Notes: generated by a model not told the origin, from the sequence alone. A stretch of 64,000 bases of DNA from a virus (IMGVR_UViG_3300024344_000004:237-64236), one strand, 5' to 3'. Counted from the first letter of the stretch, positions 33,496 to 49,504 are shown. Program-made: numbers and translations.

Positions 33496-33618
33496 ATGAG
33501 CAGAGGAGAACCATTTGGCAGTTGCGAGGACTGCGGGCTTGATGAGGTCGAACTATTCGGCGGACTATGTGAAGATTGCGAGTGTGAGATGTTTGCAACA
33601 TTCTGGACAGGAGACTGA
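33496..33618 (+). CDS. 40-aa Zn-finger microprotein
   Basis: MSRGEPFGSCEDCGLDEVELFGGLCEDCECEMFATFWTGD; leaderless. Confidence 0.7.
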   Translation: MSRGEPFGSCEDCGLDEVELFGGLCEDCECEMFATFWTGD

Positions 33619-33654
33619 GAGAAACCCTTATATAGGGTCACTCTATGGTATAGT

Positions 33655-33771
33655 ATGGCAAAACACCCGTGGGCGCATTTATCTTTAAAACAGATTTATG
33701 CCAATACAGAAAAACTAAAAAGAATACGCAAAGAAATGGAAAAGGAATTAGAAGGTGAATTAACTATTTAG
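33655..33771 (+). CDS. 38-aa hypothetical protein with own promoter
   Basis: aaacccttatatagg about 20 nt upstream; MAKHPWAHLSLKQIY... Confidence 0.65.
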   Translation: MAKHPWAHLSLKQIYANTEKLKRIRKEMEKELEGELTI

Positions 33772-33780
33772 ATTCCATGA

Positions 33781-33999
33781 GTCCCCAACACTGTAAGATG
33801 TGGCCGTAGGAGTAGGTGCACCATTTGGAAGTGGCAAGTGTATGAGTGAGTTTAATAAACTTTCCAGCATGGGGACAAGAGGAGACGCCTGACAAGTGAT
33901 GGCGAAGGGCCAGTGGCATAAGTCCGCCCGAGCGTTAAACGTAGCGACGCATCTCCAGCCCAGTGAGCCGGCCTACTACGGTGGGACAGCTGGGCGCCC
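33781..33999 (+). ncRNA. Candidate structured ncRNA A
   Basis: Stems GTCCCCA/TGGGGAC, GGAGACGC/GCATCTCC, GCCCAG/CTGGGC; crossing pairing 33804-33817 with 33971-33981. Confidence 0.6.
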
Positions 34000-34030
34000 T
34001 TTTCCACTCATGTGAAAAAACCTTTATATA
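34000..34030 (+). promoter_or_regulatory. Palindrome + BRE-TATA, copy 2
   Basis: ttttccactcatgtgaaaaaacctttatata; ATG at 34051. Confidence 0.85.
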
Positions 34031-35965: not shown

Positions 35966-36260
35966 TGAGCAAGTCAGAAAACTGCTCACCTTATATTTAT
36001 GGAAGTAGCTCTTCCGTAATCGGGTATGGCCGAACAAGTCCGCCACGGACTAAGGCACAGGACTGCGCAAACCGAGAAGCGACTGCTGGAGGAATGCAAA
36101 ACTGGTATGGGTTCTACTATGTAGTGGCATAAACCCATTGGAGGTATACATTAAATCCTCCTACCCATCCTTACATTGACGCCCCTTGACTTCCGTTATC
36201 GAATGCAAAAACATCGAGGAAGGAATGCTTTACCACCGGTGGTATATAAGTCAGGGGCTC
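35966..36260 (+). ncRNA. Candidate structured ncRNA C
   Basis: Serial hairpins TGAGC/GCTCA, GGAAG/CTTCC, AGTCC/GGACT, ATGGGTT/AACCCAT, GGAGG/CCTCC and terminal GCCCCTTGACTT/AAGTCAGGGGC before a T-run. Confidence 0.6.
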
Positions 36261-47763: not shown

Positions 47764-49236
47764 ATGAAAAAATATGAAATATACGATTTGCTAAGATATT
47801 TTCACAATGCAAAGAAAAAAGACGGAACACTTTTCCCTATACTAGGAGAGGATTCGTTAGCTCTAACTACAAGTCTATCTTACTTGTTAGAAGATACTAA
47901 CTTCTGTATTAAAGCATACAGTGGAACAGGTAAGACTGTATTGATGGAAGCTGTGGCAAACCTACTTCCAGAGGAGTATGTCTACTCAGTAGAACATATG
48001 TCAGAGACAGCAATATGGTATGATGAGGATAAAATCAACAAAGCTAGATTTGTTTTTATTCCAGAAGCACAAAAGATACCAGAGGGTGTCATGGAAATCA
48101 TTAAAACATGGGCAGACGGGCGAACAGCCCAACGTAAAAAGACAGATGTTACTATCAAGATGGCAGTAACACAGTGGTTAAAACCTAAATATGTTTTGAT
48201 GGCAGTAGCAGTAGAGAATGATAAAGGTTCAGCTATGTTTGATGCTGAGTTAGAACGTAGATGTATGATTATGCATACAAACCCTACAGTCAAACAGACA
48301 GAAAGAGTTATCAAACATAAACTTTTACATTCAGCTTCACCAAAAGCCTCTATGTCTTCAATGTCAGATAAAGAAATAAAAGATTTAAAGAAACACATAC
48401 TAACTACATTGAGAGAAAGAGACGAAGATGATGCGACTGTATTAAAGAATCCATGCGCCCCATTTCTATTTGACGCAATACCATCAGCATTCCCTGTATC
48501 ACGGTCGAAGGTTCAGTATCTATTGAAGTTGATTAATGCTATAGCAAGGTTTTATCCAGATGAGATAGTTAAAGTCAAACAAGATGGTATACAATATGGA
48601 CTAGTATCACCTAAACATAACTGGCTCGGACTGAGAATATATCTTAACTCATTTGTAGAAGAATGCTTACATATGCCAAGTCATGGAACAGACATACTTA
48701 AACTATTTCCCGAAACTAGATTAGATAGGTTTGGTTTTGCAGATAGTGAGACAGTTAAGATGTCAGAGAATGAATTGAAAAAGGCTGCTAAATCAGCTGG
48801 TCTACCATTTACCAAATTAAGACCAGTTATAGCAGGTTTAATGATGACAGGGTTCTTAGAGTGTGATGAAGAAGGAAGTAAAAAACTTTACTATAAGAGC
48901 CCACTCATTACAGAACCAGTATCAAAAATAAATTGGAGTGATTTAATTGAAGAAACGAAAGAGTTTATACGAAAAGAGTGGCCTAAAGTATCTGATGAAT
49001 ACATTGGGCGCAGTTGTAGCAGTATCAGGATTGTTGACCCGTTTAGTGGGGACAACATTGAACTGGGTGCGAGAGCAGAGACAGCGGTAGAAGTTGACAC
49101 TGGTGATTATCCGTCAGTGTTCAAGTCTTCTAGTGACGCTAAGATTAAAGACTACGAGTCTTTTCTACTAAATGCAGAGGGAGATTACAATGACGAAGAA
49201 GACAAAGCAGTCAGAGAATACTTTCAGAAGAAGTAG
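47764..49236 (+). CDS. MCM-like AAA+ P-loop NTPase/replicative helicase
   Basis: AYSGTGKT Walker A, FIPEAQK variant Walker B, ELERR arginine finger. Confidence 0.7.
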   Translation: MKKYEIYDLLRYFHNAKKKDGTLFPILGEDSLALTTSLSYLLEDTNFCIKAYSGTGKTVLMEAVANLLPEEYVYSVEHMSETAIWYDEDKINKARFVFIPEAQKIPEGVMEIIKTWADGRTAQRKKTDVTIKMAVTQWLKPKYVLMAVAVENDKGSAMFDAELERRCMIMHTNPTVKQTERVIKHKLLHSASPKASMSSMSDKEIKDLKKHILTTLRERDEDDATVLKNPCAPFLFDAIPSAFPVSRSKVQYLLKLINAIARFYPDEIVKVKQDGIQYGLVSPKHNWLGLRIYLNSFVEECLHMPSHGTDILKLFPETRLDRFGFADSETVKMSENELKKAAKSAGLPFTKLRPVIAGLMMTGFLECDEEGSKKLYYKSPLITEPVSKINWSDLIEETKEFIRKEWPKVSDEYIGRSCSSIRIVDPFSGDNIELGARAETAVEVDTGDYPSVFKSSSDAKIKDYESFLLNAEGDYNDEEDKAVREYFQKK

Positions 49237-49504
49237 ACTTCCTAAGCGAGATGAGATGTTTGCAGTAGTCATAGAGATGTCAGGGGGTTCTAGAATGAGA
49301 GCCCTCTGTGCAGACAGTAAAACCCGCATGATTAGAATCGGTGGTAAACTGAAGAAAAGAATGTGGTGTAGAGAGAATGATTTAATTATAGTTAAGCCTT
49401 GGGTTATACAGAGTGACCAAAAGGCAGACTTAGTTTATAGGTATCTCCCTACTGAGAGAAAGAATATAAGTAAAAAAATACCAGAGGAGTTAAACATATG
49501 GTGA
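49190..49504 (+). CDS. eif1a: Archaeal translation initiation factor aIF-1A (eIF1A)
   Basis: RLPKR.EMFAVV.EMSGGSRMRALC.D.KTRMIRIGGKLKKRMW.RE.DLIIVKPW..Q.DQKADLVYRY. Confidence 0.93.
   Translation: MTKKTKQSENTFRRSRLPKRDEMFAVVIEMSGGSRMRALCADSKTRMIRIGGKLKKRMWCRENDLIIVKPWVIQSDQKADLVYRYLPTERKNISKKIPEELNIW

Follow-up and report, generated by a model that had tools for sequence, protein, structure and literature searches.

A conserved, structured non-coding RNA with a candidate k-loop in marine viruses most probably infecting archaea

Does the short GC-rich segment near position 33800 of a marine viral genome specify an RNA and, if so, of what kind? The window, i.e. the whole stretch of DNA analyzed (64,000 nucleotides; IMGVR_UViG_3300024344_000004:237-64236), comes from a 69-kb IMG/VR virus record carrying tape measure, terminase, portal, PolB, and class II RNR genes. 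A sequence-only reading had proposed that the segment encodes a stand-alone structured non-coding RNA, organized in domains and markedly more GC-rich than its surroundings. The compositional claim holds, G+C being 0.575 at 33800-33999 versus about 0.32-0.47 in the flanks. The + strand has no ORF of 40 codons within 33800-33999; minus-strand ORFs of 51 aa overlap the RNA region in the window, each reading frame is broken in at least one homolog, the indels being mostly 1-2 nt, and coding potential on either strand is rejected at the sequence level. The single-sequence fold energy of the + strand is ordinary relative to shuffles (z = -0.69), and on the minus strand the shuffled sequences fold better (z = +1.53). 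Because the + strand value is unexceptional, the sequence alone is no proof of structure, and the case rests on comparative data.

An exact 21-mer led to 3 related viral contigs, and two more motifs to 16 IMG/VR homologs of 79-99% identity. Fifteen IMG/VR homologs were aligned, a structure was derived by RNAalifold and inspection, and a covariance model (R1) was built; a metagenome scan with the P6 motif described below then returned 80 loci. The 83 hits that R1 aligned score between 72 and 228 bits and include 65 distinct sequences; they derive from the 16 contigs of IMG/VR and about 70 contigs of marine metagenomes retrieved by DNA pattern scans and the covariance model, the metagenome homologs being mostly from TARA and other marine samples. 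The RNA is widespread in ocean metagenomes. By blastn against 50,697 phage records no match to the RNA was found, and no look-alike was seen in the other scanned windows; a P6-motif pattern scan of 185,579 prokaryote genomes gave 71 hits, all bacterial, mostly on GC-rich contigs and none archaeal, which look like chance matches judged by their titles. Of 6 related genomes with a completeness of 90% or more, R1 was silent in 5, indicating that the RNA is accessory and dispensable.

Comparison of the homologs indicates that 33773-34003 (+) is the gene for a conserved, folded non-coding RNA, here RNA A, whose core of about 185 nt is followed by a 3′ hairpin; both of its ends are placed by inference from sequence. 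As shown by the comparative alignment, the predicted fold consists of a 5′ domain (P1-P4), a four-way junction (P5-P8), and the 3′ hairpin P9, followed by a T-run:

33773-34003 (+): RNA A gene, defined by covariation across 65 distinct homologs
33773-33777 (+): covariation-supported pseudoknot, 5′ strand, UUCCA, the first five RNA nucleotides as placed; pairs with 33826-33830
33781-33876 (+): 5′ domain, closed by P1 and containing P2, P3a, P3b, and P4
33781-33786 / 33871-33876 (+): P1, GTCCCC/GGGGAC; 6 of 6 pairs change on both sides
33788-33792 / 33837-33841 (+): P2; 5 of 5 pairs change on both sides
33803-33805 / 33815-33817 (+): P3a; 3 of 3 pairs change on both sides
33821-33823 / 33832-33834 (+): P3b, loop UUUGGAAG; the third pair occurs as all four Watson-Crick types
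33826-33830 (+): covariation-supported pseudoknot, 3′ strand, UGGAA, inside the P3b loop
33844-33850 / 33860-33865 (+): P4, loop UUUAAUAAA; covaries, also in the mutual-information scan
33877-33880 (+): linker between domains, purine-rich (C)AANAG, at least 90% conserved among the 65 sequences
33881-33956 (+): four-way-junction domain, closed by P5
33881-33885 / 33952-33956 (+): P5, GGAGA/TCTCC; 5 of 5 pairs covary, 99% of cells paired
33886-33904 (+), stem 33886-33889 / 33901-33904: P6 hairpin, CGCC-UGA-CAAGU-GAU-GGCG
33907-33929 (+), stem 33907-33910 / 33926-33929: P7 variable arm, GGGC/GCCC here
33932-33950 (+), stem 33932-33936 / 33946-33950: P8 hairpin, RCGUU-AAACGUAGC-GACGY
33958-33995 (+), stem 33958-33964 / 33989-33995: P9, 3′ hairpin with a 7-bp base and a variable apex
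34000-34003 (+): T-run, probable transcription stop

In the model-fitted alignment, which is biased towards R1, 96.7% of 2446 cells fall in standard pairs versus 38-57% in controls whose partners were slid by 1-3 columns, both sides have changed at 29 of 40 pairs, and none of 500 shuffles reached the observed values. The count was repeated on a MAFFT-only alignment, where 97.2% of cells are paired (33-51% when slid) and both sides have changed at 17 of 45 pairs; a structure-blind mutual-information scan ranks the same pairs at the top. The RNA strand is +, for its G.U pairs, among them an invariant U.G in P8, would turn into A.C mismatches on the opposite strand. Covariation in the 65 distinct homologs thus bears out the stand-alone, domain-organized RNA of the sequence-only reading. 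All the complementary segments which that reading listed are present in the window sequence; its first-domain helix is P1, and its 3′ hairpin, GCCCAG(T)/(G)CTGGGC, agrees with the base of P9 (96.2% paired, with 3 pairs changed on both sides). Its middle helix, GGAGACGC/GCATCTCC, has to be divided: GGAGA/TCTCC is a covarying helix (P5), but the adjoining CGC(C) belongs to a separate hairpin, CGCC/GGCG (P6).

The arms differ in how far they are conserved. Three of the four P7 pairs covary (GGGC/GCCC, GAUG/CAUC, GUGG/CCAC, and others), an inner pair being recovered by mutual information; the arm measures about 23 nt at its shortest, and other lineages extend it, with sub-hairpins, to about 70 nt. 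The consensus of the P4 loop is YCUAAUAAA. The P3a loop contains AGGAGUA, and sub-clades have UGGAAUG or UGUAAUG in place of its Shine-Dalgarno-like sequence (AGGAGUAGG); this speaks against functions that depend on that sequence, an anti-Shine-Dalgarno sponge included. P9 is specific to the main clade, present in about two-thirds of the distinct homologs and replaced or lacking in the others; together with the T-run, it is the least conserved part of the RNA. The P9 base is followed by G and then often by CC(A/C/U), but only about 7 of 38 sequences have GCCA 3′ of P9. A run of at least four Ts lies 3′ of P9 in 22 of the approximately 46 hairpin-bearing homologs; in the window 4 nt (GCCC) separate the P9 stem from TTTT, and the T-run doubles as the 5′ arm of a palindrome, TTTTCCAC-N4-GTGAAAA, ahead of the next promoter.

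A loop-loop pseudoknot between 33804-33817 and 33971-33981 had also been proposed. The complementarity is present in the window but is at chance level: RNAduplex gives -18.2 kcal/mol versus -16.1 kcal/mol for shuffles, 8 of 50 of which are as good, and the proposed kissing pair is no better than pairs with shuffled 3′ regions in the window and in almost all homologs. Its 3′ partner is missing in 5-6 of 15 close homologs and in about one-third of the 60 distinct homologs with enough 3′ flank; the P9 apex itself takes at least 4 unrelated forms among homologs, or is missing. None of the pairs shows a compensatory change, an outcome that the sequence-only reading had itself taken to count against the kissing helix, which is thereby refuted. 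The alignment supports a different pseudoknot, in which the 5′ UUCCN pairs with N′GGAA in the P3b loop: i) the fifth pair is G-C in 29 sequences, A-U in 26, U-A in 1, and unpaired in none; and ii) the tetramer is swapped for AACC/GGUU in the diverged L143, L137, and L180, for CUAC/GUAG in L015 and L199, and for UACC/GGUA in L149, with the partner hairpin loop in the same place. This 5-bp pseudoknot locks the 5′ domain by tying the start of the RNA to the P3b loop.

The four-way junction has invariant purines (AAG, CGA, A). The 9-nt P8 loop AAACGUAGC is invariant as well; the P8 closing pair changes from G-C (52) to A-U (10) with zero exceptions, and the remaining 17-19 positions are identical in 62-63 distinct sequences. 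Since P8 and its loop lay outside the metagenome search pattern, this identity reflects strong purifying selection, and by its sequence conservation the loop must, we believe, contact something.

P6 is directly contiguous with P5 on the 5′ strand and therefore likely stacks on it. A k-loop has tandem trans sugar-Hoogsteen G.A/A.G pairs next to a non-canonical or Watson-Crick stem, with a terminal loop in place of the C helix, and is bound by L7Ae but not by the bacterial homolog YbxF (PMC3884654); archaeal H/ACA and C/D RNAs contain k-turn or k-loop motifs (PMC2377435). In P6, tandem A.G/G.A is followed by U.N and then by the Watson-Crick stem, a 5-nt loop replaces the C helix, and the sequence fits the C′/D′-type CUGA...UGAUG. 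The pattern fits 65 of 65 RNA A (group-1) sequences, an invariance partly imposed by the metagenome pattern, which enforced the motif; the 16 IMG/VR homologs, found through other motifs, keep it too. The sole varying position, 33900 (U42/A19/G4), is the tolerant 3b position of a k-loop. Covariation in P6 is thin, amounting to one U.G variant and one diverged stem (L250, which keeps the pairing). In L251 and most of the group-2 RNAs described below, A.A replaces A.G at the critical 1n.1b position, which argues against a strict k-loop, since that should not tolerate A.A. On balance P6 is a candidate docking site for archaeal L7Ae, and we put binding at slightly better than an even chance from the sequence pattern. 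The virus itself encodes no L7Ae gene, and a window scan for further CUGA...UGANG pairs gave hits outside the other RNA segments that resemble coding sequence.

The gene neighborhood bears on the host:

33467, 33627, 34023, 34174, 34600, 35319, 35589, 36803, 37694 (+): mRNA promoter cassettes, RAAANN-YTTATAWAGG
33627-33634 (+): TATA box of the 38-codon ORF
33655-33771 (+): mini-ORF of 38 codons, leaderless, whose stop codon ends 1 nt before the RNA
49172-49504 (+): aIF-1A homolog, 110 aa, immediately upstream of PolB

In about 10 early genes RAAANN-YTTATAWA is followed, exactly 20-22 nt past the box, by the ATG, an arrangement that reads as archaeal BRE/TATA promoters with leaderless mRNAs, judging from sequence. 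The aIF-1A homolog scores 107 bits with NF003084 (NCBIfam cut-off 91) and E = 1.8e-15 with PF01176. From the TATA promoters with leaderless starts and the viral aIF-1A gene, we infer that the carriers are most probably marine tailed viruses infecting archaea. As a separate observation, the mRNA promoter cassettes are preceded by TGGTAWWWT, and several also by the palindrome TTTTCCAC-N4-GTGGAAAA.

RNA A itself is shown by its settings to be an accessory gene: it stands alone with a promoter cassette, behind a mini-ORF, or upstream of tRNA-Glu, and the upstream gene varies between lineages as the RNA remains constant. In the window it has no separate promoter and probably makes up the tail of the 38-codon ORF mRNA; the same ORF-RNA junction is found in L002, L023, L028, L019, and others. 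In 14 of 61 homologs, which stand alone with no ORF upstream, a cassette GATGAAAATAGYAAAATAGTATTRC lies 21-25 nt upstream of UUCC, a spacing that fits a transcription start at the first RNA nucleotides, so that the RNA of promoter-bearing homologs probably starts at UUCC or 1-2 nt upstream. The GATGAAAATAGYAAAATAGTATTRC cassette also precedes tRNA-Glu in L059. Beside the mRNA promoter cassettes there is a second, promoter-like one, GATGAAAATAGYAAAATAGTATTRCAMCCC, seen only ahead of RNA genes (RNA A, group-2 RNA, and tRNA-Glu), at L003:8300-8335, L004, L016, L025, L057:3283-3305, L058, and L059:4700-4730 (-); it is unlike the mRNA promoters and is missing upstream of RNA A in the window.

Which known RNA, if any, might this be? 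RNA A is a new family by the measure of Rfam, no described family being matched: at the gathering score and at E<=10, none was found on the RNA or on 8 diverged loci, ST7-OT3 and ceN80 appearing at chance level only. Group I introns are marked by a conserved P3-P7 core with a G-binding site. A loose resemblance to a group I intron had been noted, but even at E<=10 and with the 8 diverged loci included there is no Rfam group I match, and the supposed J8/7-P7-like strand GGCATAAGTCC varies freely, other homologs having GACATAAGCCC or TACTTAATGACC. The same reading had remarked that no exon context exists, and rightly so: the flanks are a mini-ORF or promoter on one side and a terminator plus promoter on the other, with no split gene.

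The guide RNAs call for a closer comparison, as P6 resembles the k-loop modules of archaeal C/D (C′/D′) and H/ACA RNAs in having CUGA 5′ and (G)UGAUG 3′ (PMC3884654, PMC2377435). A box C/D sRNA has a C box (RUGAUGA) close to its 5′ end and a D box (CUGA) close to its 3′ end, which join in a terminal k-turn, and guides of 10-12 nt upstream of D and D′. This identity was nevertheless rejected: the only D′/C′-like pair is internal (33889-33902), the residues that precede CUGA take part in P5/P6 pairing, a CUGA in the 3′ hairpin is not conserved, and RNA A has neither terminal C and D boxes nor a single-stranded guide by D′. Archaeal H/ACA sRNAs are recognized by an apical k-turn or k-loop, an internal pocket with 5′ and 3′ guides, and an ANA box (PMC2377435). 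P6 has the sequence features of the apical k-loop, but there is no pseudouridylation pocket, as P5 and P6 are contiguous with 0 unpaired nt between them on the 5′ strand and the 3′ side holds two hairpins; nor is an ANA box conserved, P5 being followed by AGC, AGU, AGA, CCC, or UU and the "ACA" after P1 overlapping covarying pairs. RNA A is moreover 3-4 times longer than the guide RNAs and is built on a four-way junction and a 5′ pseudoknot.

Other identities were tried and rejected. ARAGORN found no tRNA or tmRNA in the window, RF00005 gave no match, and the junction topology is mirrored relative to tRNA, which excludes a tRNA or tRNA-like molecule. By eye, the hammerhead fails (CUGACAA rather than CUGANGA), no core motifs of HDV, twister, or group I are seen, and a k-turn in P9 was rejected; a k-turn at the base of P1 was also discarded (the GA at the critical position varies), as were the SRP Alu domain (UGUAAG is present but the element order differs) and RNase P CR-I (AAGUCC is not conserved). 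A window search for targets complementary to the P3a and P8 loops returned as its sole exact match the RNA's own locus, and one for the P4-loop complement a single exact match (19986), not above chance.

What we tentatively propose, at a little less than an even chance and by argument from sequence, is that RNA A is a stable, trans-acting RNA of a viral RNP. The P6 k-loop would recruit host L7Ae, so that the RNA would work as an RNP; its working surfaces would be two loops, the invariant one of P8 and the conserved one of P4, contacting a host protein or RNA in trans; and this contact, early in infection, would redirect host RNA or the translation machinery. The 3′ end would be formed by termination at the T-run after P9 or, in tRNA-linked lineages, by RNase P cleavage of the downstream tRNA. 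A more specific version, in which the RNA is an RNP scaffold holding L7Ae via the k-loop and a second translation or RNA-maturation factor via P8/P4 and, with viral aIF-1A and leaderless mRNAs, takes part in a takeover, we regard as doubtful.

We wish to stress that the family itself is well defined (65 distinct sequences, nine helices, a covarying pseudoknot, no Rfam match). We know of no conserved structured non-coding RNA family in archaeal viruses. The candidate k-loop, the invariant 9-nt loop, and the stable-RNA type of promoter offer handles on how marine archaeal viruses use RNA, as does the physical linkage to tRNA-Glu genes and manA-type RNAs. If the RNP proposal is true, the RNA would be a new viral route into the archaeal translation or RNA-modification apparatus, and if the scaffold version is true, it would be the first functional non-coding RNP RNA of an archaeal virus.

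Among the competing explanations, the tRNA neighbors suggest a companion in tRNA processing or maturation, co-transcribed with tRNA-Glu, released by RNase P, and serving tRNA supply or protection; the main-clade P9 would then be a leftover of, or a substitute for, the tRNA. The stable RNAs of the T4 tRNA cluster offer an analogue. The genes concerned are:

L180:2067-2142, L181, L198, L057:3560-3635, L059:4597-4672 (-): tRNA-Glu(UUC) with encoded CCA and leader CCUUAUWAU

In three lineages, group-2 included, the gene lies 10-16 nt downstream of the RNA, with the leader in common; in L180, L181, and L198 it follows RNA A after about 15 nt, leaving no room for a promoter, and in L057 it likewise follows group-2 RNA. 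One promoter cassette serves RNA and tRNA, the 7-bp P9 base is followed by G and often CC(A/C/U), and a T-arm-like hairpin precedes the RNA in several lineages. Yet the window is without any tRNA, most homologs have none nearby, and GCCA after P9 is rare; the four-way junction is not tRNA-like, its zero-nucleotide junction being on the wrong strand and a T loop lacking, and both ARAGORN and the Rfam tRNA model are silent. We consider such a role unlikely.

Could the RNA instead act mainly in cis, stabilizing or ending a transcript as a 3′ element of the mini-ORF mRNA or as a complex terminator or insulator that separates early genes, with no action in trans? Its position in the window invites the thought, as it begins 1 nt after the stop of the 38-codon ORF, has no promoter of its own there, and ends in P9 and a T-run directly before the next promoter. 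The homologs tell against it: 14 of 61 stand alone behind their dedicated cassette and others lie upstream of a tRNA, the upstream gene differs between lineages as the RNA stays the same, and conservation is lowest in P9 and the T-run. A pseudoknot, a four-way junction, and invariant loops, spread over about 185 nt, far exceed what a terminator requires. A mainly cis-acting element is in our estimation distinctly unlikely.

An RNA that senses a ligand or metal, or a new class of self-cleaving ribozyme, would account for the compact pseudoknotted fold and for the four-way junction with its invariant purines and invariant loop, conservation of a kind typical of ribozymes and aptamers. Against this, no Rfam ribozyme or riboswitch matches at E<=10, no downstream gene is placed to be controlled (a terminator and a full promoter intervene), exon context is lacking, and inspection by eye reveals no core motif of the hammerhead, HDV, twister, or group I kind; we judge both possibilities quite improbable. 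Conservation at the level of DNA (an origin, packaging site, or protein-binding array) or of a small protein is very improbable, as the 51-aa minus-strand ORFs that overlap the RNA in the window are outweighed by compensatory changes that keep RNA pairs, including G.U pairs that would be A.C on the other strand, by a minus strand that folds worse than its shuffles, and by the lack of any frame open across the homologs, with their mostly 1-2-nt indels.

Two further RNAs in the same virus group bear comparison with RNA A:

L057:3330-3545, L058, L059:4760-4990 (-), L060, L062, L063; L042, L043, L049: group-2 RNA loci
35997-36171 (+): manA RNA (RF01745), 62.8 bits, 2 kb downstream of RNA A in the window

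The group-2 RNA, of about 280 nt, occurs in L057-L063, L042, L043, and L049, related viruses without RNA A, and its closing helix covaries (GUCGGU/ACCGAC, GUCUGU/ACAGAC, GUUGGU/ACCAAC). Like RNA A it has i) P5 directly continued by a CGCC-NGACAA-NNRAN-GGCG hairpin, plus AAG; ii) a UUGGAAG-loop hairpin, and an AU-rich-loop hairpin before an A-rich linker; and iii) a common promoter cassette and a tRNA-Glu neighbor. It differs in length, in placing the UUGGAAG hairpin inside the P5-closed domain, in lacking a P8-type AAACGUAGC loop, and in having mostly A.A at k-loop 1n.1b. Group-1 and group-2 RNAs occur together in 0 of 20 comparable loci and may be alternatives.

The manA motif was originally described from cyanophages and marine bacteria (PMC2864571), so that one would not expect it in viruses with archaeal promoters. 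Matches to the manA model of 53.3 and 49.6 bits, below the gathering score of 55.2, adjoin RNA A in L149 (1470-1648) and group-2 RNA in L058 (1930-2113, -). The manA RNA shares with RNA A its genome and its character as a marine viral RNA, but has another fold and no shared motif; AAGTCCGCC, common to the two in the window, is not conserved among RNA A homologs. The virus group thus carries a whole island of RNA genes.

ROOL, GOLLD, and the stable RNAs of the T4 tRNA cluster are orphan structured phage RNAs found beside tRNA genes. RNA A resembles them in being virus-encoded, apparently untranslated, structured, accessory, and often beside or co-transcribed with tRNAs; it differs from ROOL and GOLLD in that Rfam is silent on it, in being much smaller, in residing in viruses of archaeal rather than bacterial type, and in having a candidate k-loop.

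Three further elements recur near RNA A. A conserved hairpin GGCUGGG-UUUCAGGGGCCGAAUCCCGA-CCCAGCC, which has a stem of 7 bp and an inner arm similar to the T arm of a tRNA, was found at 46 loci (e.g. L211:3906-3925 (-), L159:1397-1416, L005:3809-3828, and L180:1765-1784) though not in the window, often a few nucleotides upstream of RNA A; from its sequence it may act as a processing signal of tRNA-like type or be a small RNA in its own right. In several lineages a recurring element, GCAGGUUACCCCC... or CCGGUUACCCCCUAGUAAG..., takes the place of the T-run and promoter that otherwise follow the RNA; it lies just 3′ of P9 in L152, L020, L158, L192, L165, L189, L173, and L187, occurs also in L183, L205, and L145, and may, by its sequence, be another structured element. 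Finally, 33496-33618 (+) in the window encodes a 40-aa double-CxxC mini-protein (MSRGEPFGSCEDCG...CEDCEC...), homologs of which, at times duplicated, tblastn detects on one side of the RNA or the other at 75 of about 88 RNA-bearing loci.
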